Positions 3,158 to 53,766 are shown, counted from the stretch's first letter. The stretch is DNA of 64,000 nt from Candidatus Moranbacteria bacterium GW2011_GWA2_39_41 (GCA_000995125.1 LBXA01000001.1:15511-79510); one strand, 5' to 3'. A program made the numbers and translations. Notes: generated by a model not told the origin, from the letters alone.

Positions 3158-4276
3158 ATGAAAATTGCAATTTCTGTTGCTGATCTTGATCAATCGCGCG
3201 TTGACGGAACTCGCGTCTATATTCTCAATTTGCTGAAACATTTCGGCCAATTAGATTTTGACAGCGAGTTTTTGTTATATCATAAAAATGATTTCAACCC
3301 AGAGTTGACTCCGCCAAATTTTCTCAATTACAAAATCATTCAAAAATCTTTTCCATTTTTGTGGACACAGATTCGCTTGGCAATGGAGTTGTGGAAAGAC
3401 GTGCCAGATGTTTTGTGGATGCCGATGGCAGCCTTGCCGTTGGTGCGTCGCAAGAACTTGAAAACGGTTATCACGATTCATGATTTGGCTTTCAAACATT
3501 TTCCGCAATATTTCACCAAGAAAGATTTGCGCAAGCTGAATTTTTTTGCCGACTATTCCGTTAGAAATGCCAGCAAGATTATTGCGGTTTCACAATCAAC
3601 CAAGCAAGACATTTTGAAATTTTATCCAGAAGTTAAAGAGGACAAAATTAAAGTCATTTATCATGGCTTCACTGATGGAGTTTTTTCGCAGGCGCGTGAT
3701 TTGACGCAAGAAGAAAAGGTGAAAAATGAGCTGGGAATTGTAGGGGATTATATCTTGTATTCCGGTGCTCTGCAGCCAAGAAAAAACATTGAAAGACTAA
3801 TTGAAGCCTTTGATGCCTACAAGACTCGCTCAAAATCGGCCGTCAAGCTGGTTTTGGCAGGAGAAAAGGCTTGGTTGTGCGAAAATATTGAGAAAAAGGC
3901 CAAACGAAGCCTATATAGTGCAGACATTGTGATGCCCGGTAGGCTCAGATTCTGCGATATAGGACACTTGTTCCGTGGGGCAGCTCTCTTTGCCCATCCT
4001 TCATTGTATGAAGGTTTTGGCATCACAGTTTTGGAAGCATATGCTGCGGGTGTGCCACTTTTGACGGCGGACAATTCCTCTTTGCGAGAGGCGGGTGGTG
4101 AGGCGGCATTGTATTTTGATGCTTATGATGTTTGCGAGATGAGCGCGCAAATGGAGCGACTTTTGACGGATGAAAAATTGCGCACTGAATTGATTGCCAA
4201 AGGAAAAGAGCAATTGCAAAAATTCTCGTGGGAAAAATGCGCCAAGGAGACGTTGGGATATATTAAGACCTCGTAG
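3158..4276 (+). CDS. Glycosyltransferase family 4 (GT-B fold)
   Basis: C-terminal GT4 motif EGFGITVLEAYAAGVPLLTADNSSLREAGGEAALYF. Confidence 0.8.
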   Translation: MKIAISVADLDQSRVDGTRVYILNLLKHFGQLDFDSEFLLYHKNDFNPELTPPNFLNYKIIQKSFPFLWTQIRLAMELWKDVPDVLWMPMAALPLVRRKNLKTVITIHDLAFKHFPQYFTKKDLRKLNFFADYSVRNASKIIAVSQSTKQDILKFYPEVKEDKIKVIYHGFTDGVFSQARDLTQEEKVKNELGIVGDYILYSGALQPRKNIERLIEAFDAYKTRSKSAVKLVLAGEKAWLCENIEKKAKRSLYSADIVMPGRLRFCDIGHLFRGAALFAHPSLYEGFGITVLEAYAAGVPLLTADNSSLREAGGEAALYFDAYDVCEMSAQMERLLTDEKLRTELIAKGKEQLQKFSWEKCAKETLGYIKTS

Positions 4277-4306
4277 AAACGAGGCACTGCCTCGTTTCTA
4301 CATGAC
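4272..4306. terminator. Perfect 13-bp stem-loop (gtagaaacgaggc-act-gcctcgtttctac) between convergent genes
   Basis: The inverted repeat is visible in the sequence and overlaps the GT4 stop codon. No T-tract follows, so it may serve as a bidirectional attenuator. Confidence 0.45.
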
Positions 4307-4314
4307 TGGCTAGA

Positions 4315-4716
4315 TTAGTCTTCCTGAAAAACCCTAATCAAAAAATAACTGGTCACAAAGAGTGTGATTAGAATAAAAATATTCAAAAAAATATTGAGCT
4401 TGAGCAGACTATTGAAAAGTAAGAGTGCACAGATGATAAGTAGGGACGCGATTAATCGCGTCTCTACTATTTTTTTGTTGCTGGCTTTTTCTGGTACTTT
4501 GATGACTTTACCAATGCCGGTGATGGCTAGAACATTCAAAAGAATCATGATGACAATTTTGTAGAGTCCGATGTGCGTGGAAACAACTCCAGGCAAAGCA
4601 CCTTCGGCTAAAAGTGTGAGCATGAAAAATGTCAGCAAAACCAAGAGGCTGTCGTTGAGTAATTTATACAGAATAATTGTTTTAGGTCCGGCACTGAATT
4701 TAATTTGTGGGAACAT
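4315..4716 (-). CDS. Small four-TM membrane protein, GtrA-like
   Basis: 133 aa with four predicted hydrophobic helices. Its size and topology resemble GtrA-family polysaccharide-synthesis proteins. Confidence 0.4.
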   Translation of the reverse strand: MFPQIKFSAGPKTIILYKLLNDSLLVLLTFFMLTLLAEGALPGVVSTHIGLYKIVIMILLNVLAITGIGKVIKVPEKASNKKIVETRLIASLLIICALLLFNSLLKLNIFLNIFILITLFVTSYFLIRVFQED

Positions 4717-6034
4717 AATTGTTTTTTACCCGATTAGACATTCTACTTAGAGTTAAGAATAAATTATCTTGATTGACGTCTTTTTTGAACTCAATGTTGA
4801 TGGTGTCGACCTGAATGGCAGAACTTGATTTGGCATAAAATTCATAATCACTGCCGAGCAAATTTTGCATGTTGGCGATTGGAATTTCACATGAATATGA
4901 ATTGTCACTAAGCGCATCTTTTTTGAATGAGCATGAATTTGTTAGACTGAGACTATCTCGTGAAACCAGAATCGGATTTTTTTTGAGCCAGGAAGCCACA
5001 ACATTGGCTGAAGGCAATAGTCTTTTTTTGCCATCTTGAATCAAATAATGATTGCCACTTTCACTGGTTTTGAAAATCGTACCATTGGAATGTATGCTGG
5101 CTATGGTGAAATTTTTCTCTTTTGTATAAAGCGCTATTTCTTCCGGAGTGACCGGGATAACATCTTTCCAAACATAGCCTTTGCTAAGAAAGGTTTCTGG
5201 ACTATCGACAGGCAGGATATTTTGACCACTGGTGATATAAATTGTGTCACCATAAGACAGAATTGAGCCATCAGCGAAACCAATTAGATTATTAGAAGGT
5301 TTGAAGGTTGATAGAAAGCTGATATCTTTTATGATGGCTTGATTTGAGTCATATTGACTGAGGAAGGCGTTGGCGCTGATAAATTTTTGCAAGTGCTCGC
5401 TTTGCAATAAATAGTATTCATCGTTAACTCTAAAAAAAGTTTTATTGGGATATTGCGCTTTGGTTATGGAATCACCTTTTTTATTATAATTGATTTCAAT
5501 TGGTGCGACCTCTCGAAAAGCTTCCGGCGCATAACCCAGTTCGGTCACTAAATTCGGCTTAGCGAATTTATGCATTTTTCCATTAAAAACTATATAATAG
5601 CTTCCTTCACTTTTGAGAAGCGAGCCATCCTTGAAGCCCATAATCGGACCATCCAGATAGAGGAAAGCTTGATATGATTTTCTAACAATGATTGATCCGG
5701 ATTGAAGTGGGGCAGATTTTTTGTCTAACGAAAAAGTCACAACTGCCTTGGAAAAAAAATCAAACACGGAAGCATTGAAATTCAAGGTTGCGTTGGCGGC
5801 CAATAGACCTTTTTCTGGTAAAAGCTTGGTATAGTCGCGCACATCATAGATGTTGTTACTCTTAGCTAAAGGCTTGTTGAAATCAAAACCGAAATAGGAA
5901 GTGGGGAAGAGGATGCGGATGGCAAAAAAGACCGCCAAAGAAATAGTGGATAAATAAAAAATAACCTGCAAAATGCGGTAGATGATTGAATTTTTTTTAT
6001 CGAGTTTAATGTGAGCGGTTAGGTCTAGAGTCAT
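4700..6034 (-). CDS. Hypothetical N-terminally membrane-anchored extracytoplasmic protein
   Basis: 444 aa. One N-terminal TM helix (IIYRILQVIFYLSTISLAVFFAI) is followed by a large hydrophilic domain. No motif was recognised. Confidence 0.5.
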   Translation of the reverse strand: MTLDLTAHIKLDKKNSIIYRILQVIFYLSTISLAVFFAIRILFPTSYFGFDFNKPLAKSNNIYDVRDYTKLLPEKGLLAANATLNFNASVFDFFSKAVVTFSLDKKSAPLQSGSIIVRKSYQAFLYLDGPIMGFKDGSLLKSEGSYYIVFNGKMHKFAKPNLVTELGYAPEAFREVAPIEINYNKKGDSITKAQYPNKTFFRVNDEYYLLQSEHLQKFISANAFLSQYDSNQAIIKDISFLSTFKPSNNLIGFADGSILSYGDTIYITSGQNILPVDSPETFLSKGYVWKDVIPVTPEEIALYTKEKNFTIASIHSNGTIFKTSESGNHYLIQDGKKRLLPSANVVASWLKKNPILVSRDSLSLTNSCSFKKDALSDNSYSCEIPIANMQNLLGSDYEFYAKSSSAIQVDTINIEFKKDVNQDNLFLTLSRMSNRVKNNYVPTN

Positions 6035-6120
6035 ATTATTAGTTTGTAAAGTTCTTAAAGTTAAAAGTTCGTAAAGTGTTGATTTTAAAAACCTTATAAA
6101 CTTGATGAACTTTTTAACTT
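6035..6120. repeat. Left copy of a roughly 75-bp inverted repeat; its partner is at 9262-9339
   Basis: The reverse complement of 9262-9339 aligns with this segment at about 88% identity (gttaaaagttYgtaaagtgtYgaYtttaaaaacYtt..aaacttgatgaac). GTAAAGTT-like sub-repeats are present. Confidence 0.75.
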
Positions 6121-7962
6121 CTAGTTTTTTAATAGATAAATTTTACCATAAATTGTAATATCTTGCATGGTTGGCAATTCAATTGGTGCGTCAAACATTT
6201 CTTGTTTTTCACCAGTTTTGATAGCGAGAACAGAATTGTTGATTGTATAGTCTTGCACAGGCATCAATTTCGGAAAGATATTGCTCTGGCGGTAGAAATC
6301 CAGTTTGTTATCAGGAATGATGAAATAGATGTTGCTAAATTTGCTATGATCAATTTTTTCTAAATCAGTCGGATTGAAAAAATAAACAGCTTGTTTGTTG
6401 AATAGAAAATTAAGCGGTCCAGTCATCATAGACCAGCCATCGCCAGTAGCATCGCGATCAACCAAAATCAAATCAGAATCGATGAAGTTGGCAGAGATTT
6501 TTTCAATTTGAGGCAAGAGGTTTTTGTCAGGTGAGATTGTCAGAAAGGGCACGAAAACCATGAGGCTGGTGGCAATGAGCAAGGCTATGACAAAATAGAA
6601 ATAAGCTCTTTTTTTGAAAAAGTAATCGAAAAACCAAACGGCATAGAGAATACTGACGGGAATGATGGAGAAAACGAAGCGACGCAACATCCAGGGATGA
6701 TCAGCTGAAATGCTGGGATGGATAATGTAGACAAATGTCGGCAGAATGATGAGAAATGGCACCAAAATTTCAAATTTTTTGCAGCGCCACAAATAAACAA
6801 AGCCAGTTAGCCCAAACAAAATAAAATTGAAAAGCGCATAGGCCGAGAAAACTTTGAGTACATAAAATGTAGTGGCAAAAAATGGCACAGATTCTGCTGA
6901 CGAATAATCCTTAAGTCCAGAGCCAAGAGAAATGAAAGGACTCAAAATGCCCTTCAGCATGGAATAATAGGATGGACTGTCAATAGTTAAATTGAAAAAA
7001 TATAAAACTAAAAAACCGCCAACAATTAGGATAATTTTTTTGCCAATTACAGTAAACAATAGGTATTTCCAATCTTTATATTTAATAAGCAAAATAGCAG
7101 TGATGACGGCCAAAAATCCAAGCGCTTCCACGCGAATGAAAACCAATAGGGCAAAAGTGGTGAGAGATGACAAAAGATAGAAACGTGATTTGTTTTTGGT
7201 AAATAGCACAAATTCATAAATCCCAAACCAAGTCAGCATCATGGCTAGGTTTTCACTCAGAGTGAATTTGAAAAACCAAGCGAAAACGAAAGAGGTCAGA
7301 ATTAGCAAGGTGGCCATTATGGCAGATGACGCGCGCAGATAATAACGAGCGACTAAATAGAAAGAAAAAATGAAGATGGCAAAGGTGATACTATTGGCTA
7401 CAGCAAAACCATTAAGACCAATCAAGGAATAGAAAATTGCCAACCATGAGATGTAGCCCAATGGGAATTGAGTAGCAAGATTGCCTTGAGCAGTGTATTG
7501 AAAGCCTGGGAAATTCAAGGCAGGTCCAGCGTCATAGATTTTGAAAAATTCTTGTGAAGCAGTTGAGGCAAAAGACAAATGATGATTTTGGGCTAGGCGG
7601 ATGGCGGCTTCACTGAGGGAGCCTTGATCGCGTCCGGAAAAGATAGTTGGAGTGGCATAGAAAGAAAAAATAAAAACTGAAATTAAAGTCAAAATGAAAA
7701 TCAGAAAGAAACGGAAATTGATCTCAATTTTGGTTTTGTTGAAGTTGATTAGATATATTAGAAAGATTGAACCCAAAAGAATGTAGCTAACTAGGATAGC
7801 ATTATAAAAAATACCCAACAGTGATAGGGCTAAACCAAGCCATCCCATCCCAATCCAAAAAAGGACAAAAGCCGTGAATAGCTGAAATTTATCTAAATTT
7901 ACCTCAGGTATTTTGAATTTGATCATTAGTGTAATTATATAGCCAAAATACTCTTTTGCCAA
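6121..7962 (-). CDS. Large polytopic membrane protein, putative GT-C-type glycosyltransferase or polymerase
   Basis: 613 aa with more than 12 predicted TM helices and a C-terminal soluble domain. No catalytic motif was recognised confidently. Confidence 0.45.
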   Translation of the reverse strand: MAKEYFGYIITLMIKFKIPEVNLDKFQLFTAFVLFWIGMGWLGLALSLLGIFYNAILVSYILLGSIFLIYLINFNKTKIEINFRFFLIFILTLISVFIFSFYATPTIFSGRDQGSLSEAAIRLAQNHHLSFASTASQEFFKIYDAGPALNFPGFQYTAQGNLATQFPLGYISWLAIFYSLIGLNGFAVANSITFAIFIFSFYLVARYYLRASSAIMATLLILTSFVFAWFFKFTLSENLAMMLTWFGIYEFVLFTKNKSRFYLLSSLTTFALLVFIRVEALGFLAVITAILLIKYKDWKYLLFTVIGKKIILIVGGFLVLYFFNLTIDSPSYYSMLKGILSPFISLGSGLKDYSSAESVPFFATTFYVLKVFSAYALFNFILFGLTGFVYLWRCKKFEILVPFLIILPTFVYIIHPSISADHPWMLRRFVFSIIPVSILYAVWFFDYFFKKRAYFYFVIALLIATSLMVFVPFLTISPDKNLLPQIEKISANFIDSDLILVDRDATGDGWSMMTGPLNFLFNKQAVYFFNPTDLEKIDHSKFSNIYFIIPDNKLDFYRQSNIFPKLMPVQDYTINNSVLAIKTGEKQEMFDAPIELPTMQDITIYGKIYLLKN

Positions 7963-7984
7963 ACGATTATTTATGGGGTAAGAT

Positions 7985-8085
7985 AGGCATAAGACATGTT
8001 AACATTTTAGCACGTTAGCAATTTTTGAATTGCCCAAATGCTAGTTTGTTAATATGTTAAAATGTTAATATGCTAACGTGCTGAC
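7985..8085. promoter_or_regulatory. Repeat-rich divergent promoter or operator region
   Basis: Four TGTTAAnAT repeats are present. There is also a perfect 12-bp inverted repeat, AGCACGTTAGCA (8013-8024) / TGCTAACGTGCT (8068-8079), immediately upstream of the 8086 ATG. Confidence 0.35.
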
Positions 8086-9261
8086 ATGAAAATACTAGTT
8101 ATTGCCCCAACCCCATTTTTTGCTGACCGCGGAACCCACATTCGTATTCTGGAAGAGGCGCTGGCATTGGAAAGGTTGGGCAATCAGATTACAATTGCAA
8201 CCTATCATATTGGCCGGGACATTCCAGCTGAGATTGATACCAAGATTGATGTACGACGGATCCGTCGTTTGCTTTTTTGGTACAAAAAATTGGAAGCGGG
8301 ACCAGACTGGCAGAAAATCATTTTGGACTTGATGCTCATCAAAAAAGTTTTGTTTTTGGCGCGGACACAAAAGCCAGACGTGATTCATGGTCATTTGCAC
8401 GAAGGAGTTTTGATTGGCTGGATTGTGCAAAAATTGCTTTTTTGGCGCAACATCAAATTGGTGGCTGATTTTCATGGCAGTCTGACGGGCGAGATGGTTT
8501 CGCACGGTTATTTAAAAAAAGGTTTGAAATGGTTTTTTAGAAGCATTGAAAGATTTATTAATGGTTTGGGTGATTGGGCAATTGTCAGTTCTTGGGAGGG
8601 TTTGGAGCCAATTAAGTTGGCCAGAGGTGGGGAGGGTGCGGAAGTGATGTTAGATGGAACAAGTTTGGCCAGTTTCAATTTGAAACAAAGCAAAAGTGAA
8701 TTGCGCCGAGAAATGGAAATTTCTGAAGACAAATTTGTAGTCATCTATTCGGGCGGTTTGGTGCCTAACAAGGGCGTGGCGCATCTTTTTGCGTCTATCC
8801 AGCCAACGTTGGCGCAAAATCCCAATGTCTTTTTTATGATCGGTGGTTTTCCTGCTGATTATGCGAGTGATTTTGTGAAGAAAAATAATTTAGAAAAATT
8901 TGTCCGCGTGGTGAGTCCGTTGAGCTATTTTGATATGCCAAAATTCAATTGTGTGGGAGATGTGGCAATTGATCCCAAAGAAATTGAGACCAATCAAGCC
9001 AGTGGCAAGATGCTCAACTATATGTCCGCCGGTTTGCCAGTGGTGTGTTTTGATAAAGATAACAATCGTAAATATTTGGATGACGGTGGCTATTTTTGTG
9101 AATCTTCCGCTTCCGGCATTGTGAAAGGTATTTTGCATTTTGCGAGCCATCCTCAAGAAGCACGTGAGAAAGGCGAGAACAACAAAAAACGCGCGGTGGA
9201 TTTCAGTTGGGAGGCTTCAGCGGAAAAGATAAATGAGATTTATAAAAAGATAACAAGTTAA
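8086..9261 (+). CDS. Glycosyltransferase family 4
   Basis: GT-B architecture. The N-terminus MKILVIAPTPFFADRGTHIRILEEALAL and the C-terminal GGFP...nucleotide-binding half fit GT4. Confidence 0.75.
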   Translation: MKILVIAPTPFFADRGTHIRILEEALALERLGNQITIATYHIGRDIPAEIDTKIDVRRIRRLLFWYKKLEAGPDWQKIILDLMLIKKVLFLARTQKPDVIHGHLHEGVLIGWIVQKLLFWRNIKLVADFHGSLTGEMVSHGYLKKGLKWFFRSIERFINGLGDWAIVSSWEGLEPIKLARGGEGAEVMLDGTSLASFNLKQSKSELRREMEISEDKFVVIYSGGLVPNKGVAHLFASIQPTLAQNPNVFFMIGGFPADYASDFVKKNNLEKFVRVVSPLSYFDMPKFNCVGDVAIDPKEIETNQASGKMLNYMSAGLPVVCFDKDNNRKYLDDGGYFCESSASGIVKGILHFASHPQEAREKGENNKKRAVDFSWEASAEKINEIYKKITS

Positions 9262-9339
9262 AGGTTCATCAAGTTTTTAAAGTTTTTAAAGTCGACACTT
9301 TACAAACTTTTAACTTTACGAACCTTAAGAACTAATACC
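9262..9339. repeat. Right copy of the roughly 75-bp inverted repeat, reverse complement of 6035-6120
   Basis: The alignment is described under the left copy. The repeat abuts stop codon 9261 and start codon 9340. Confidence 0.75.
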
Positions 9340-10524
9340 ATGAAACTTTTTTTAATCAAACTTGGCAAAGCTTGGAATGTGTTGCGACGCGATGGCATTC
9401 TGGGTGGAGGCAAAAGAATATTTGGATTTTTCAAAGAATTTGTGAAAAACATTTTTAGTATTCGTGCAGGCGACATTCTTTTTGTGACCGCAGGCGTTGG
9501 CGATAGCGCCCTCTATCGTGCACACAATCAGGCAGAAGAATTGCGTTTGCATGGTTTTAGTGTTTCAGTGACAATGCAAGACAATCCTTTCTTGCCGATG
9601 TTGGCCAAGAAATTCAAGGTATTTGTTTTCCATCGCACTATGCAAACCCCAGCTATCACGAAGATGATTGAGAAAATCAAAGCGCAAAAAGGCGAAATCA
9701 TCTTTGAAACTGACGACTTGGTTTTTGATGTTAAGTATATTCAGCAAACTGATCATTATAAAAACATGTCTTTCTTTGAAAAGAAACAATATGAAAAGGG
9801 GATTGGCGAAGACATCTTGAAAGATCCATATGTTAAAGTTTGTACCACTAGCACGCAGTTTATTGCTAAGAAGTTGGCAGAATATGGTAAGCAAGTTTTC
9901 GTGACCACTAACAAGCTTTCACAATATTGGTTGGATTTGGCTGATCAGCTTTTACAAAATCACAAACAAGACAAAGAAATTCGCGACAAGGTTCGCATCG
10001 GCTATTTCAGTGGCACAGTGGGACACAACAAGGACTTTGCCACCATATCAGAAGCCTTGATTGAGGTTTTGCAAAAATATCCGCAAGTTGAAATATTTTT
10101 GGCTGGTCCGTTGGTGTTGGAAGAAAAATTCAACGCATTGGCGAACAGATTTGTACGTTCACCTTATGTTTCTCGTGACAAACACTTTGAAAACATTTTC
10201 TATTGTGATATTATTTTAGCGCCGTTGGAAATGGATGATTTTTCGGAAGGCAAATCAGAATTGAAATTTTCTGAAGCAGGTCTGCTGGAAGTGCCGGTGG
10301 TAGCCGCGCGTAATCAAACTTTTTCTGGCGCCATCACAGATGGAGAAAATGGATTTTTGGCGGATCACAAAGAAGAATGGGTGGAAAAACTTTCCAAGTT
10401 AATTGAAGACAAGGAATTTAGACAAATGATGGGCAAAAAAGCTCGCGAAAAAGCTTTGCAAGATTATACGACGAAGAATAGTCATGAAGAAGAATACTAC
10501 GCATATTTAAAATCCAAAATATAA
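9340..10524 (+). CDS. Glycosyltransferase, GT-B fold (GT1/GT4-like)
   Basis: 394 aa. The C-terminal half has a GT-B Rossmann pattern (EIFLAGPLV...SEAGLLEVPVVAARN). Confidence 0.65.
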   Translation: MKLFLIKLGKAWNVLRRDGILGGGKRIFGFFKEFVKNIFSIRAGDILFVTAGVGDSALYRAHNQAEELRLHGFSVSVTMQDNPFLPMLAKKFKVFVFHRTMQTPAITKMIEKIKAQKGEIIFETDDLVFDVKYIQQTDHYKNMSFFEKKQYEKGIGEDILKDPYVKVCTTSTQFIAKKLAEYGKQVFVTTNKLSQYWLDLADQLLQNHKQDKEIRDKVRIGYFSGTVGHNKDFATISEALIEVLQKYPQVEIFLAGPLVLEEKFNALANRFVRSPYVSRDKHFENIFYCDIILAPLEMDDFSEGKSELKFSEAGLLEVPVVAARNQTFSGAITDGENGFLADHKEEWVEKLSKLIEDKEFRQMMGKKAREKALQDYTTKNSHEEEYYAYLKSKI

Positions 10525-10560
10525 ATGACAAATGTCAAATAAAATATATATTATAAAATT

Positions 10561-11517
10561 ATGAAAATTCTTGTTACGGGTGGTGCAGGGTTTATCGGTT
10601 CACATGTCACCAAAAAATTATTAGAGCGAGGAGATAGCGTGGTTTGCGTGGATAGTTTCAATGATTATTATTCACCCAAAGTGAAGGAACTGAATGTGGC
10701 GCAATTTGCGGAAAATCCAAATTACAAACTATATCGCGGTGATATCACAGACTATGAATTTTTGAAAAACATTTTTGCTACAGAAAAAATTGAGCGTGTT
10801 TTTCATCCGGCGGCGCGTGCGGGTGTGCGACCTAGTATTGCTGATCCTTTTATTTATGCCAATACAAATTATGTCGGAACTTTGAATCTTTTGGATTTGT
10901 CCAAAGATTTTGGTATTGAAAATTTTGTCTTGACCAGCTCTTCTTCGGTCTATGGCGAAAACAAAAAAGTTCCCTTTGCGGAAACTGATGTTGTCGATTT
11001 CCCAATCTCTCCCTATGCGGCCACAAAAAAAGGCACCGAGCTTATGGCGCATGCCTATCACTATTTACATAAATTAAATGTGAATGTGATTCGACCGTTC
11101 ACAGTCTATGGTCCAGGTGGACGACCAGATATGTTCCCATTCTTGTGCACCAAATGGATAGATGAGGGAACTGAAGTGAAAAGATTTGGCGATGGCTCAA
11201 CTCGACGCGACTACACTTATATTGATGACATTGTGGATGGTGTGATTGCCTCAATCGATCGAATTTTTGGTTATGAAATTTTCAATCTCGGAAATTCTGA
11301 TACAGTGGATTTGAATAGCTTTATCGCAGTGGTAGAAAAATGTTTAGGCAAGAAAGCCAACATCAAAGAATATCCGATGTTTTCTGGTGATGTGCCAATC
11401 ACTTATGCTGACATCACCAAAGCTCGCAAAATGTTAGACTATAATCCAAAAACAAAAATTGAGGACGGAATGAAAAAATTTGTGGAATGGTATCAAGAAA
11501 ATAAGCAAAATTATTAA
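10561..11517 (+). CDS. NAD-dependent nucleotide-sugar epimerase (UDP-glucuronate/UDP-GlcNAc 4-epimerase-like, extended SDR)
   Basis: MKILVTGGAGFIGSH is a Rossmann motif. YAATKKGTELMAHAY carries the YxxxK catalytic motif. PFTVYGPGGRPDM is typical of Cap1J/LpsL-type 4-epimerases. Confidence 0.8.
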   Translation: MKILVTGGAGFIGSHVTKKLLERGDSVVCVDSFNDYYSPKVKELNVAQFAENPNYKLYRGDITDYEFLKNIFATEKIERVFHPAARAGVRPSIADPFIYANTNYVGTLNLLDLSKDFGIENFVLTSSSSVYGENKKVPFAETDVVDFPISPYAATKKGTELMAHAYHYLHKLNVNVIRPFTVYGPGGRPDMFPFLCTKWIDEGTEVKRFGDGSTRRDYTYIDDIVDGVIASIDRIFGYEIFNLGNSDTVDLNSFIAVVEKCLGKKANIKEYPMFSGDVPITYADITKARKMLDYNPKTKIEDGMKKFVEWYQENKQNY

Positions 11518-11522
11518 ACAAA

Positions 11523-12302
11523 ATGGCACGACAACACGAAAATTACAAAGAGCTAATTTGGATGCTGGCCAAAACTGACTTCAAACTGCGCTATCACGGC
11601 AGTGTTTTGGGTTATCTGTGGGCACTGTTGAAGCCTTTGTTGACTTTTGCAATTTTGAATTTTGTTTTTTCTTCAGTTTTCAATCCGCGAGGCACCGGCA
11701 TGGACACCTATTCTTTGCAATTGTTGGTCGCCTTGATGATGTTCTATTTCTTCGCTGAAGGAACCAGTGCTGGTATGAACTCACTTTTGAGCAAATCGCA
11801 ATTGGTGACCAAAATCTATGTCCCGCGTTGGACCATCATCTTGGCTTCCACCATCAATGCGACTTTGATTTTTTTGATGAATCTAGTGGTGATCATCTTC
11901 TTTTTCGCGCTCAAAGGTTTCATGCCAAGTCTGGCGTCCATTGGAATGTTTCTGTTGTTCTCAATTTTCATCTATATCATAGTTTTGTCTTTTGCCTTGA
12001 TAACCGCGCCACTCTACGTGAAATTCCGTGACCTTTCCATGATTTGGGAAGTGCTCCTGATGATCATCATGTATGCTTCACCCATCATTTATCCCTTGGC
12101 CACTTTGCCAACTCAATATCATCAATTTATTCTCTTGAATCCTTTGGCCTTTATCATCCACTTCACCAAAGAATCTTTGATTAATAATCACTTCGCCAGT
12201 CCTATTCAATACGTTGTCTTTGTCTCCATTGTGCTCGGCGCCTTTGCTTTCAGCATCTGGTCCTACCGCAAAATGGCTCCACGGATTGCGGAAGATATGT
12301 AG
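11523..12302 (+). CDS. ABC-2 type polysaccharide or teichoic-acid export permease (Wzm/TagG-like)
   Basis: N-terminus ELIWMLAKTDFKLRYHGSVLGYLWALLKP is the Wzm/TagG signature. Six TM helices are predicted. No adjacent ATPase gene is present. Confidence 0.75.
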   Translation: MARQHENYKELIWMLAKTDFKLRYHGSVLGYLWALLKPLLTFAILNFVFSSVFNPRGTGMDTYSLQLLVALMMFYFFAEGTSAGMNSLLSKSQLVTKIYVPRWTIILASTINATLIFLMNLVVIIFFFALKGFMPSLASIGMFLLFSIFIYIIVLSFALITAPLYVKFRDLSMIWEVLLMIIMYASPIIYPLATLPTQYHQFILLNPLAFIIHFTKESLINNHFASPIQYVVFVSIVLGAFAFSIWSYRKMAPRIAEDM

Positions 12303-50999: not shown

Positions 51000-52493
51000 A
51001 TGTCCTATCAAATCGAAAACTTGTCCCCTCACAAAAAACAATTTCAAACCTCTGCTATGCAAGTTCCGGCTATCTTGCATGTCTCGGATGACTTGATGCC
51101 CAACGAGGCCACGTTGGCTGAAATTGAGGGCGTAGCTTCTGACCCGCATGCTTTTCATCATGTAGCTGCCATGTCTGACGTACACAGCAAAAAGGGCCGT
51201 AAGAACCCAACTGGCACCGTGATGGCCTCAGAGGACCATTTGTTGCCCCAAATCAATGATACGGCGCCCAATTGTGGTATGCGCTTTTTGAAGACCAATC
51301 TCACCGATGCAGATTTTACTCCAGAAAACATTGACCGACTTTTCCAAGAATTGATTGGTGTCATCCCAACCAAGGCTTATGTTGGCACCAAAATGCCCTA
51401 TTCTTTGATTATGGACATTTGCCGCAAAGGCATTGCGCCAGTGCGAGAATTTTTCCAAACTCGCACTAAAAATGAAATTGCAAACGCTTTCGAAGGTGGC
51501 AACTTTTTTTCTGAAATTCCCACGGAAAAAGAAATTCTCAATGCCATTCCAAAATTGTTTTTACACATTGGGCAATATCGTCTTGGCATCCTCGGCGCTG
51601 CTGGCAATCATTTCTTGGATTTGATGAAAATCACCGAAATTGAAAATCAAGAGATTGCTACCAAATTCGGATTGCAAACTGGGCAATATATTTTTTTGTT
51701 ACACACTGGCTCCGGACTTTTGGGGCAATACGCGTCATACCTTTATACGCCCAAAAGAAAAGAACACTTGAGCCAAAGAATTATCTTGGAAATTGGCAAA
51801 TTTCTTTTCAAGACAGATTATAAAAAAGAATTCAAAACCTTGTGGAAAAAAATTGAAAGTTTCAAGGACAGCAAAGAATATTTCGCCTATGATGACCAAA
51901 GCTTGGAAGGCAAACTCTTTTTGACTTCGCACAATGCCGCCGCCAATCAAGGCTATGCCAATCGTTCAATTTTGAATCATCAATTAGACTTGGCAATTGA
52001 AAAAGTTTTGGGCAAAAATCCAGAATTAGATATGCTCTATGACATGCCACATGTTTTTGTGCATCGGGAAAAAAATCATTTTGGCAAAGATGTTTGGGTG
52101 CATAGAAACGGCACTGTACGCGCCAATGGCCCAGCACGTATGAACCATCCATTGTTCTCCCAAACTGGTGAGCCAGTTTTCATTCCGTCTTCCATGAGCA
52201 CGCCGGCCTATATTTGCGCTGGGACTGACGCCAATGAATCTAGTTTCTTCTCAGCGAGTCACGGCACCGGTCGTCGCAGAGATCCCTTGGCTGATGCGAC
52301 GCATAATAGAGCGGAACTTTTCGACAAGCTCAAAGCAAGACAAGTCAAACTTTTCAATGCCAAATCCAAAGGCGTAGTCATGCAGGATAGTTCATACTAC
52401 AAAGATGTGGAAGAAGTCATCGCTGGCATGGAAGCCAATCAAATCGTCAAAGCCGTGGCCAAAATGGAACCAGTGGCAGTTTTGATGTACTAA
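51000..52493 (+). CDS. rtcB: RtcB-family RNA 3'-phosphate/5'-OH ligase (divergent)
   Basis: MSDVHSKKG...DTAPNCGMRF parallels RtcB PDxHxGyG...DIGCGM. HNAAANQGYA parallels HNHA. SHGTGRRRD parallels the HGAGR motif. Confidence 0.65.
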   Translation: MSYQIENLSPHKKQFQTSAMQVPAILHVSDDLMPNEATLAEIEGVASDPHAFHHVAAMSDVHSKKGRKNPTGTVMASEDHLLPQINDTAPNCGMRFLKTNLTDADFTPENIDRLFQELIGVIPTKAYVGTKMPYSLIMDICRKGIAPVREFFQTRTKNEIANAFEGGNFFSEIPTEKEILNAIPKLFLHIGQYRLGILGAAGNHFLDLMKITEIENQEIATKFGLQTGQYIFLLHTGSGLLGQYASYLYTPKRKEHLSQRIILEIGKFLFKTDYKKEFKTLWKKIESFKDSKEYFAYDDQSLEGKLFLTSHNAAANQGYANRSILNHQLDLAIEKVLGKNPELDMLYDMPHVFVHREKNHFGKDVWVHRNGTVRANGPARMNHPLFSQTGEPVFIPSSMSTPAYICAGTDANESSFFSASHGTGRRRDPLADATHNRAELFDKLKARQVKLFNAKSKGVVMQDSSYYKDVEEVIAGMEANQIVKAVAKMEPVAVLMY

Positions 52494-52872: not shown

Positions 52873-52997
52873 GCCTCAGTAGCTCAATAGGTGAAGCAAC
52901 TGATCATCTGACCGCTGGACAAGTGATTTTCCAGTGAGATGAAGCACCCTTTCTTGAGAAGATCAGAAAGCTGGAGGTTCGAGTCCTCTCTGGGGCT
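52873..52997 (+). tRNA. tRNA-like gene with roughly 50 extra nt in the anticodon arm (putative intron-containing tRNA; anticodon unresolved)
   Basis: The acceptor pairs GCCTCAG with CTGGGGC. The T-arm is GGAGG-TTCGAGT-CCTCT. The D-arm is class-II-like (GCT...GGTGA...AGC). The only anticodon stem is CTGAT(C) at 52900-52905 with (G)ATCAG at 52961-52966, about 55 nt apart. A terminator follows. Confidence 0.55.
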
Positions 52998-53110: not shown

Positions 53111-53749
53111 ATGAAAATTATCACTATTTCCGGCGTGGACGGATCAGGTAAATCGACCCAAATCAAGCTTCTACAAGAATATTTAGAATCGCGAGATATG
53201 CGGGTTTTTTATTTCCATGCCATTGAGTTTGGTTTGGCTACCAAACTAGCCGATTTCAAGAAAAAATATTGCCTGATTTGCAAAATCAAAGGTCTGTGCA
53301 ACATCAAATCGTCTGAAACAAAAAGTGTCACCAAGGCCAACTGGCTACAAATCCAACTACGCAAAATTTTTCTTCGCATCGATATTTTACGCTTCAAAAA
53401 ACTCATAAAAAAATTAGAGAAAGAAAAAATTGACTATCTTCTTAGTGATCGCTTTTTCTACGATTCAGTCGTCAACATCCACTATCTTGAAAATTCGGAC
53501 ATTAAAAATTCGGCTTTGATTCAAAATTCAAAATTCAAAATTCAAAATTCTTTTTATATGGACATATCTCCCGAACAAATCATGCAACGCGAAAGAAAAC
53601 CCGATCAAGGCCTGGAATATTTACAAAAAAAGACTGAACTGTTCAAGCAAAAAATTGAAGACTGGAATATGCAAATTATTGACGCCAATCAGTCTAAGGA
53701 GGAAATTTTCAATGCCATCAAGAGCATTGTGACTTTACGGACTTTATAA
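53111..53749 (+). CDS. tmk: Thymidylate kinase-like nucleotide kinase with a low-complexity insertion
   Basis: MKIITISGVDGSGKSTQ is the Tmk-type P-loop and LLSDRFFYDSVVN is a DRY-like motif. The protein is 212 aa, and IQNSKFKIQNS is encoded by an (AAAATTC)4 repeat. Confidence 0.55.
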   Translation: MKIITISGVDGSGKSTQIKLLQEYLESRDMRVFYFHAIEFGLATKLADFKKKYCLICKIKGLCNIKSSETKSVTKANWLQIQLRKIFLRIDILRFKKLIKKLEKEKIDYLLSDRFFYDSVVNIHYLENSDIKNSALIQNSKFKIQNSFYMDISPEQIMQRERKPDQGLEYLQKKTELFKQKIEDWNMQIIDANQSKEEIFNAIKSIVTLRTL

Positions 53750-53766
53750 ACTTTTAACTTCACGTT

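Follow-up and report, generated by a model that had tools for sequence, protein, structure and literature searches.

A probable MITE/REP-like palindromic repeat in stop-to-start spacers within operons of a Candidatus Moranbacteria genome

Two inverted repeats bracket a divergent gene pair in the window (the whole stretch of 64,000 nucleotides that was analysed) from Candidatus Moranbacteria bacterium GW2011_GWA2_39_41. With a probability of roughly 0.6, we conclude that both belong to one subtype of a small, non-coding, AT-rich MITE/REP-like palindromic intergenic repeat and are not sites of inversion recombination. The element occupies stop-to-start spacers within operons of this genome. Each copy is internally palindromic, the same subtype lies at non-orthologous junctions of a close relative, the gene order is constant and the order of the arms holds family-wide. 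These features suggest that the repeat behaves like a mobile or convertible palindromic element, with a function that we infer.

The candidate phase-variation switch of the original prediction does not stand; what is documented is an intergenic palindromic repeat, mobile or convertible, from a genome of the candidate phyla radiation (Patescibacteria), for which no description was found in Rfam or in the searchable literature. Such repeats can fill the stop-to-start spacers inside operons and even supply the stop codon. They also point to a wider family of polar arrays of 7-9 nt units common to Patescibacteria and Bacteroidota, for which no Rfam family or searchable paper was found and which, if the arrays prove to be expression signals, would bear on operon expression in organisms without Shine-Dalgarno sequences.

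The divergent gene pair and its repeats

The first inner gene (minus strand, 6121-7962) is a 613-aa ORF from TTG 7962 that encodes a polytopic membrane protein. Its true start is probably ATG 7926 (~601 aa), because the closest homologues have about 600 aa and our own ORF calling chose that codon. The product has no Pfam match and probably is a GT-C-type glycosyltransferase, judging from a weak NCBIfam match to a putative glycosyltransferase family and from homologues, some of which carry PMT_2 or are named GT39. The second inner gene (plus strand, 8086-9261, 391 aa) encodes a GT4-family glycosyltransferase with the domains Glyco_transf_4 and Glycos_transf_1. Between them, positions 7963-8085 contain nested palindromes (7995-8021/8046-8072 and 8003-8020/8071-8088) and presumably act as promoter/operator region for both operon arms; this region sits within the segment proposed to invert. 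Downstream of the left repeat lies a 444-aa gene (minus strand, 4700-6034) of unassigned function with an N-terminal hydrophobic segment, which has the 613-aa gene as its neighbour in all relatives with that flank. Downstream of the right repeat lies a GT1-family glycosyltransferase gene (plus strand, 9340-10524, 394 aa), assigned by domain match and synteny. The possibility that the two outer genes are paralogues and the source of the repeat was rejected (BLASTP E = 0.5), and the repeat is therefore confined to the spacers, 6035-6120 on the minus strand and 9262-9339 on the plus strand. An SD-like tetramer precedes 6 of the 56 genes in the window, so that Shine-Dalgarno sequences are almost never present.

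In a repeat search of positions 4000-12000, the pair was outstanding, with arms 6031-6131 and 9243-9343 (101 nt) that are 81% complementary without gaps, the runner-up being 33 nt at 73%. The inverted pair of the original prediction is thus real, with a gapped identity between the spacer portions of 83-85%, slightly under the 88% that had been claimed. The left copy (minus strand, 6035-6120; subtype A) occupies the interval between the stop codon of the 613-aa gene and the start codon (ATG) of the 444-aa gene. The right copy of the same repeat (plus strand, 9255-9339) extends from the end of the GT4 gene to ATG 9340. The predicted stop-to-start geometry agrees with the gene coordinates, but the right copy begins at 9255, inside the end of the GT4 gene, and not at 9262: the last codons of that gene, with its TAA stop, are provided by the first unit of the copy, AAGTTAA (9255-9261). 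Both repeats are 85-86 nt long and without ORF, their longest exact match is 14 bp, and the GC content of the bracketed segment is that of its surroundings.

A 23-nt core, CACTTTACRAACTTTTAACTTTA, was found with up to three mismatches at both copies and at one further site, 53740, for an expectation by chance of 0 (100 shuffles). This third site belongs to a single, non-palindromic four-unit array of AACTTT type (plus strand, 53732-53760; ACTTTACGG ACTTTATAA ACTTTTA ACTT; nhmmer E = 0.04), which overlaps the last part of a thymidylate-kinase-like gene and stops 6 nt short of the start codon (ATG 53767) of the gene for a Wzx/MurJ-like flippase. The ~84 kb around the site contain two full copies and two single arrays, a low copy number that counts against a MITE/REP-like reading, as does the absence of any transposase or RAYT among the genes called in these 84 kb.

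Internal palindrome and predicted folding

Each copy in the window is itself an imperfect palindrome of 70-90 nt, in which AAAGTT-type units of 7-9 nt are followed by a loop and by AACTTT-type units. On the minus strand, the left copy has a 5' arm of AAGTT/AAAGTT-type units (6119-6084), a loop (6083-6076) and a 3' arm of AACTTT-type units (6075-6041), with the ATG 6 nt beyond the last pair. On the plus strand, the right copy has its 5' arm at 9256-9292, its loop at 9293-9296 (centre GTCGAC) and its 3' arm at 9297-9333, followed by AATACC and ATG 9340. With respect to transcription, both copies therefore read alike (stop codon, AAAGTT-unit arm, loop, AACTTT-unit arm, ATG), and they appear inverted because the two operon arms diverge. 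The internal palindrome of each copy was absent from the original prediction.

From end to end, the element forms an imperfect palindrome (85-116 nt) with no coding capacity, which is the structure of a MITE. As RNA, the left copy is predicted to fold with a minimum free energy of -15.0 kcal/mol (z = -2.0, or -2.2 with its flanks) and the right copy with -21.4 kcal/mol (z = -4.3; none of 200 shuffles folded equally well). A long hairpin was predicted for all eight elements at the junctions of this locus in five genomes, with z between -2.2 and -6.3. The arms co-vary by subtype, with AAAGTCC/GGACTTT in the relatives L137 and L138 and AAAGTT/AACTTT in the window, and three arm pairs show changes on both sides. 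Against the MITE/REP-like reading, the arms are not nucleotide-exact complements and pair mainly through the cores of their units. The G-U asymmetry test gave no support for selection on the sense RNA, the antisense strand folding slightly better in 7/8 elements.

Gain and loss among relatives

The comparison set consisted of nine related loci with 53-89% identity in the 613-aa protein. The gene order of the window was found in all nine and none was inverted. The 613→444 adjacency is kept in the eight loci having that flank, and the GT4→GT1 adjacency in the five where both genes were seen (L123 is without GT4), while the recombinant adjacencies expected from an inversion were never seen among the nine.

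The element itself is facultative in this group of very small bacteria from groundwater, with a presence/absence polymorphism at orthologous junctions. Between the 613-aa and 444-aa genes, it was found only in the window and in the closest relative, L137; the spacer is 7-11 nt long and without element in L122, L123, L124, L127 and L138, and L125 has there an unrelated GC-rich hairpin. Between GT4 and GT1, the element is present in the window, L125, L137 and L138, and L126 has a spacer of 11 nt. Most relatives carry just one of the two repeats, or none. The left and right copies of the window and the copy at the GT1→epimerase junction of L137 are 82-86% mutually identical and constitute subtype A, at three junctions in two genomes. 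The left copy is 86% identical to this L137 copy and 85% identical to the right copy of the window, and the two orthologous junctions of L137 carry copies with only 57-64% identity to those of the window. Empty spacers in relatives together with similar copies at non-orthologous sites are the distribution expected of a MITE. No target-site duplication was recognised by comparing filled with empty sites, whose flanks are too diverged and AT-rich.

The palindromic intergenic repeat, as we read it, would spread by copy-and-paste or gene conversion between spacers and would be co-transcribed within the operon. Its transcript is predicted to form an imperfect hairpin with about 30 bp, the base of which would place the upstream stop codon beside the AUG of the next gene. 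On terminating at this stop, a ribosome would melt the base of the stem and free the G-poor leader before the AUG; translational coupling could thus be retained despite an insertion of 86 nt, where the relatives would couple through spacers of 7-11 nt. The hairpin may also stabilise or process the mRNA, as for REP, ERIC and Correia elements.

A wider family of unit arrays

A 20-nt core of the repeat has at least 120 loci among the matches listed, in genomes of Patescibacteria and Bacteroidota and nearly all intergenic. The type of the repeat is thus present at many unrelated intergenic sites, a result contrary to inversion of the segment and listed by the original prediction itself among those that would refute it. 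In an array scan of 121 sources (886 kb, with genes from our own ORF calls), 208 of 220 array arms lay outside ORF calls, and the arm order was AAAGT then ACTTT in 50 cases and the reverse in one. By the same arm-based count, the sense strand is ACTTT beside gene starts (64 vs 15) and AAAGT beside gene stops (66 vs 28). ACTTT-sense arrays usually end 3-25 nt before an ATG, and their units show a regular spacing of 7-9 bp with a conserved core ACTTT and a variable linker. The genes that follow arrays include those of ribosomal proteins, tRNAs and a 16S flank, and some arrays of Flavobacteriales/Bacteroidales run straight into a TAnnTTTG box, the -7 promoter motif of Bacteroidetes. Single non-palindromic arrays and arrays adjoining tRNA/16S genes are unexplained by translational coupling and speak against our preferred reading.

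Searches of Rfam gave no match on the elements of the window, the best sub-threshold hit being FopS with 21.8 bits against a gathering score of 56; this identity was rejected, as the match is at chance level. Ten array-bearing loci likewise gave no relevant Rfam match, and nothing relevant was found in the searchable literature, whether on the unit sequences, on the T7 epsilon sequence or on promoters and intergenic repeats of CPR bacteria. AAAGTT-unit arrays after gene ends and AACTTT-unit arrays before starts, often paired in a hairpin and found in Patescibacteria as well as in Bacteroidota and their relatives, may constitute a class that crosses phyla, of which the two copies in the window would be local members. 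It is a tentative and rather doubtful proposal that they form an undescribed class of polar cis elements acting as an RNA-level expression signal rather than merely as selfish repeats. They might, for example, be leaders that recruit ribosomes or couple translation, signal antitermination in the manner of boxA, or serve as modules for processing by an RNase.

Alternative readings

A first alternative, which we consider possible but rather unlikely, sees in the element a signal that combines transcription stop and start, or a leader signal. Its hairpin would attenuate or terminate the upstream transcript, the 5' arm and loop would provide a weak sigma-70-type promoter, and the AACTTT arm would be a G-poor leader for SD-independent initiation or a boxA-like/UP-like signal. 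The polarity and position of ACTTT-sense arrays before starts, the ribosomal protein, tRNA and 16S-flank neighbours and the TAnnTTTG boxes all agree with such a module, as do the identity of the unit TTAACTTTA with the T7 gene-10 'epsilon' enhancer and its resemblance to rrn boxA. On the sense strand, one can moreover read TTCATC-16 nt-TAAAAT in the left copy and TTCATC-16 nt-TAAAGT in the right, ending just before the loop, and the arm order places U-rich tracts in the 3' arm, in the manner of a terminator. The stems are nevertheless AU-rich, are followed by AAUACC or AAUAAU without a terminal U-tract, and were not called by a terminator scan; the GC-rich hairpins which that scan and the repeat search picked out in the window look different. 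The -35/-10 reading falls below the thresholds of the promoter scan and is absent from L123 and L125, and a promoter in the 5' arm was not favoured, being weak and unconserved. The module is also dispensable, since the same gene pairs of relatives span 7-11 nt spacers without it; an AAAGT-sense array lies directly before an ATG in L130, an exception to the polarity; and arrays abut the mature 5' ends of tRNAs, leaving no space for a core promoter. The duplicated terminator-promoter module once suggested for this locus comes closest to the evidence as a duplicated intergenic module, but canonical features of terminators and promoters were not found. As a separate observation, boxA motifs gave scattered and uninformative matches in the fetched loci, one exception being GCTCTTTAC in L081, where it neighbours an array unit between the 16S and 23S genes.

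Less probable still is a reading at the level of DNA, in which a nucleoid-associated protein or regulator binds the 7-9 bp units as iterated sites and the dyad reflects binding of a symmetric multimer, or a cruciform, and not RNA structure. It would account for the regular spacing of the units, for arms that pair chiefly through unit cores and not by exact complementarity, and for the missing G-U bias of the sense strand. All four arrays in the 84 kb sit in glycan-biosynthesis operons, but almost all of the 84 kb is devoted to glycan biosynthesis and this association is therefore uninformative. Against it, the genes that follow the same subtype in different genomes are unrelated, the elements are dispensable, and no candidate binding protein was identified; a polarity relative to transcription is also unexpected for a symmetric DNA site.

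We regard it as very improbable that site-specific or homologous recombination between the repeats inverts the segment 6121-9261 and so makes it a phase-variation switch for surface glycan genes. Inverted repeats of ~85 nt do bracket it exactly at gene junctions, such that an inversion keeps all reading frames, and the locus encodes functions in cell-envelope glycosylation, a common target of phase variation. Against a switch, a single orientation was found across the nine related loci, the repeats were gained and lost independently, and they belong to a widespread intergenic family. The remark that no recombinase is visible in the window was borne out and now extends to ~84 kb, as no serine or tyrosine recombinase or transposase domain was found among the Pfam families of the called genes. 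The longest exact identity of 14 bp falls short of the 20-25 bp that RecA usually requires to recombine efficiently. Since both genes of the divergent pair lie whole within the segment, together with their central control region, an inversion would relocate no promoter and only swap the downstream partners. The further idea of a composite transposon or transposon-like cassette found no support, as the repeats hold no ORF and no transposase domain was called in ~84 kb, the inner pair is ancestral and syntenic, and its GC content is that of its surroundings.

Comparison with known systems

The site-specific invertons (fim, hin and the capsule promoter switches of Bacteroides) resemble this locus in having inverted repeats that flank a segment, here in a surface-glycan locus. 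They differ from it in that here no invertase was called in 84 kb, no alternative orientation occurs in relatives, the segment consists of whole genes and not of a promoter or alternative coding ends, and the repeats belong to a generic intergenic family gained and lost independently.

REP, BIME and REPIN sequences are extragenic palindromes with effects on mRNA stability and are regarded as non-autonomous mobile DNA (PMC12306157, PMC3116915, PMC3479197). The palindromic repeat described here is likewise extragenic and matches in particular the class located between two cistrons of one operon, intercistronic REPs within operons having been described (PMC12306157). Unlike REP/REPIN, its hairpins are AU-rich and 70-90 nt long with two full copies in 84 kb and, unlike RAYT-mobilised members, it has no RAYT gene called in that interval.

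Closer are the MITEs Correia of Neisseria and ERIC of Enterobacteriaceae. MITE and REP elements can have terminal inverted repeats, long RNA stem-loops, co-transcription and effects on mRNA stability, as reviewed (PMC3184786). Correia and ERIC are, like the present element, of about 100 bp, non-coding and intergenic, with terminal inverted repeats giving a long stem-loop; they too are present or absent at a given site in close relatives and can overlap gene ends, and they are often co-transcribed with the flanking genes (PMC3184786). Unlike them, our element is very AT-rich, is made up of iterated AAAGTT/AACTTT units of 7-9 nt and spans the whole distance between stop codon and ATG; it showed neither a TA nor any other target-site duplication and has no known parent IS, and its units also occur as single polar arrays, in two distant phyla.

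Finally, in structure-mediated translational coupling, a model holds that an intercistronic structure hides the region where downstream translation starts until the ribosome terminating upstream opens it (PMC4538824). Models of classical coupling by SD occlusion are not directly transferable to an organism without SD sequences; the geometry inferred here is nevertheless like that of structure-mediated coupling, with the stop codon at the base of the stem on the 5' side and the AUG 6 nt past the base on the 3' side.

Structure of the two intergenic elements

The proteins of the window match exactly those of UT50_C0001, a Candidatus Moranbacteria contig assembled from groundwater metagenome data (PRJNA268031), and the ~84 kb of contig surveyed are devoted almost entirely to cell-envelope glycan biosynthesis (GT2, GT4, PMT-like, Wzy, Wzx, sugar epimerases). 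Scanning 4000-12000, we found that the arms 6031-6131 and 9243-9343 form by far the longest inverted repeat, with 101 nt that are 81% complementary without gaps, the runner-up having 33 nt and 73%; after gapped alignment, the spacer parts of the two copies are 83-85% identical. Both sites share a 23-nt core, found a third time at 53740 with three mismatches, for which 100 shuffles gave an expectation of zero. The repeat pair of the original prediction is thus present in the sequence, as is the gene arrangement it described: on the minus strand, the gene for a 613-aa polytopic membrane protein (6121-7962), the left copy (6035-6120) and the gene for a 444-aa protein (4700-6034); on the plus strand, the GT4 gene (8086-9261), the right copy and a GT1-family gene (9340-10524). 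The spacers are flanked as it stated, except that the right copy starts at 9255, inside the GT4 end, where its first unit (9255-9261) provides the final codons and the TAA stop. An element of the closest relative (L137, 3379-3393) likewise provides through its first unit the final codons and stop codon of GT1, so that the 5' edge of the repeat overlaps coding sequence. The two outer genes are unrelated to each other, which rules out the repeat pair as a remnant of a larger duplication. Homologues of ~600 aa and the ATG chosen by our own ORF routine point to ATG 7926 as the probable start of the 613-aa gene. The divergent control region that separates it from GT4 (7963-8085) carries nested palindromes (7995-8021/8046-8072 and 8003-8020/8071-8088) which look like an operator, and because the region is a hairpin, several Rfam microRNA models match it at chance level.

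Each copy is also a long imperfect palindrome in its own right, a feature overlooked initially. Read in the sense of transcription, both consist of a stop codon, an arm of four to five AAGTT/AAAGTT-type units, a short loop, an arm of the inverse AACTTT-type units, 6-9 bases and an ATG; they share one orientation relative to transcription and appear inverted only because one lies in each arm of a divergent operon pair. The right copy folds with -21.4 kcal/mol (z = -4.3) and the left one with -15.0 kcal/mol (z = -2.0), and long hairpins were obtained for 8/8 elements of the window and related loci (z -2.2 to -6.3). The arm sequences co-vary by subtype, with changes on both sides at three pairs. 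Pairing occurs mostly through the unit cores and no bias in G-U pairs towards the sense strand was seen, two features that count against a function at the RNA level.

Gene order and element turnover in relatives

Gene order was compared in nine related loci (L122-L127 from JGI metagenomes, L137 from GCA_030645735.1, and L138/L139), whose 613-aa homologues are 53-89% identical to that of the window. All eight loci covering that flank have the 613-aa gene beside the 444-aa one, and all five showing both GT4 and GT1 have these two adjacent (L123 is without GT4); the recombinant adjacencies, 613 beside GT1 or GT4 beside 444, occur in none of the nine. Across ~84 kb, no called gene has a domain of a recombinase, integrase or transposase. 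Exact identity between the copies extends over 14 bp at most, less than RecA-dependent recombination usually requires. The interpretation of 6121-9261 as an invertible segment is not supported; this segment encloses both inner genes and their shared control region, and therefore a flip would move no promoter.

Among the compared loci, the window and L137 are alone in having an element in the 613→444 spacer, which measures 7-11 nt in L122, L123, L124, L127 and L138 and contains an unrelated GC-rich hairpin in L125. The GT4→GT1 spacer holds an element in the window, L125, L137 and L138 and is 11 nt long in L126, and the GT1→epimerase spacer has one in L123 and L137 and none in the window. Copy similarity does not track position: the left and right copies of the window and the GT1→epimerase copy of L137 share 82-86% mutual identity, copies at orthologous positions are just 57-64% identical, and the left and right copies of L137 are of a different unit subtype (AAAGTCC/GGACTTT). 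Judged from these comparisons, such facultative presence and position-independent similarity are those of a mobile or gene-converting repeat and not of conserved recombination sites.

GC-rich hairpins unrelated to the element were seen at 3281-3367 of L125, where other genomes have the AT-rich element, and at 609-699 of L126, at a junction which holds it elsewhere (gtagtggtccggt...accggaccactac and gagacatcggatgtc..., respectively). Different kinds of spacer hairpin seem interchangeable at equal operon positions.

A wider family of polar arrays

A 20-nt core, ACTTTAYRAACTTTTAACTT, matched at least 120 loci of species-representative genomes, those among the matches listed being mostly from Patescibacteria and Bacteroidota/Ignavibacteria, with a few others and five viral contigs. 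The matches lie in arrays of units spaced by 9, 7 or 8 nt with the core ACTTT. Scanning 121 sources (886 kb) with our own ORF calls, we found 208 of 220 array arms outside these calls, and the arm order AAAGT→ACTTT in 50 cases against a single reverse one. The sense strand reads ACTTT beside gene starts (64 vs 15) and AAAGT beside gene stops (66 vs 28). The arrays usually stop 3-25 nt short of an SD-less ATG, and are found ahead of ribosomal-protein genes, beside tRNAs and in one 16S-23S spacer. No Rfam family covers them and literature word searches returned no relevant description.

Over ~84 kb, the contig holds exactly two full elements and two single arrays. One (53732-53760) lies ahead of a Wzx-like flippase; the other, ~9 kb past the window end (L130, 948-972), consists of four AAAGT-sense units and fills the spacer from stop to ATG where two epimerase genes adjoin, which departs from the usual ACTTT-sense polarity ahead of starts. 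Shine-Dalgarno sequences are nearly absent from the window, an SD-like tetramer being found for 6 of its 56 genes, and the regions upstream of the 56 starts are A/T-rich and G-poor, as is known for Bacteroidota.

Several further observations concern individual loci. Three palindromic family elements lie within 7 kb of a Saccharibacteria contig (CAZBAS010000004.1, L107), each directly ahead of an apparent ribosomal-protein gene, which we take from the N-terminal sequences to be S4, L13 and L17; two of the three are near-identical, like the window's pair. The end of an IMG/VR viral contig (L135, 1-150) is a perfect tandem array of about five repeats with a 31-nt period, made of family units (ACTTTATAA ACTTTTA ACTTTCAA ACTTTTA). 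On its sense strand, the left copy contains at 6047-6059 TTAACTTTAAGAA, identical to a 13-nt stretch in the leader of T7 gene 10 which includes the 'epsilon' enhancer TTAACTTTA; the array units resemble the rrn boxA core (CUUUAACAA), and a GCTCTTTAC motif stands beside an array unit in the 16S-23S spacer of L081. All these are unverified resemblances in low-complexity sequence. Finally, Rfam called at 52873-52997 (+) a 125-nt tRNA (41.1 bits) not reported by ARAGORN, with normal acceptor, D and T arms and ~50 additional bases within the anticodon loop. An RtcB RNA-ligase gene (51000-52493) ends 380 nt upstream of it, and a GC-rich hairpin with a T-run, resembling a canonical terminator, comes after it; this may be an intron-containing tRNA adjoining its ligase.

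Discussion

The palindromy of the copies, their turnover between junctions, the constant synteny, the lack of a recombinase in ~84 kb and the polarity of the whole family are direct observations. We propose that the element is a MITE/REP-like insertion which would be co-transcribed. The base of its hairpin would bring the stop codon of the upstream gene close to the AUG of the next one, and a terminating ribosome could open the base of the stem, which would keep the translational coupling achieved in relatives by spacers of 7-11 nt. Neither a target-site duplication nor, in ~84 kb, a transposase was found, and both results count against a simple MITE. The main rival explanation, a terminator/promoter or leader-signal module, is favoured by the polarity of the arrays relative to genes and by the kinds of genes downstream. 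The features of a canonical terminator or promoter are either missing or lack conservation, and the element is dispensable in relatives.

For the co-transcribed insertion, effects of the hairpin on mRNA stability or processing are also possible; REP, ERIC and Correia elements are reported to have such effects (PMC3184786, PMC12306157). Beyond the pair of the window, the wider polar-array family poses a moderately interesting question. The feature itself belongs to the palindromic intergenic repeats, a known kind, of which it is a new variant.
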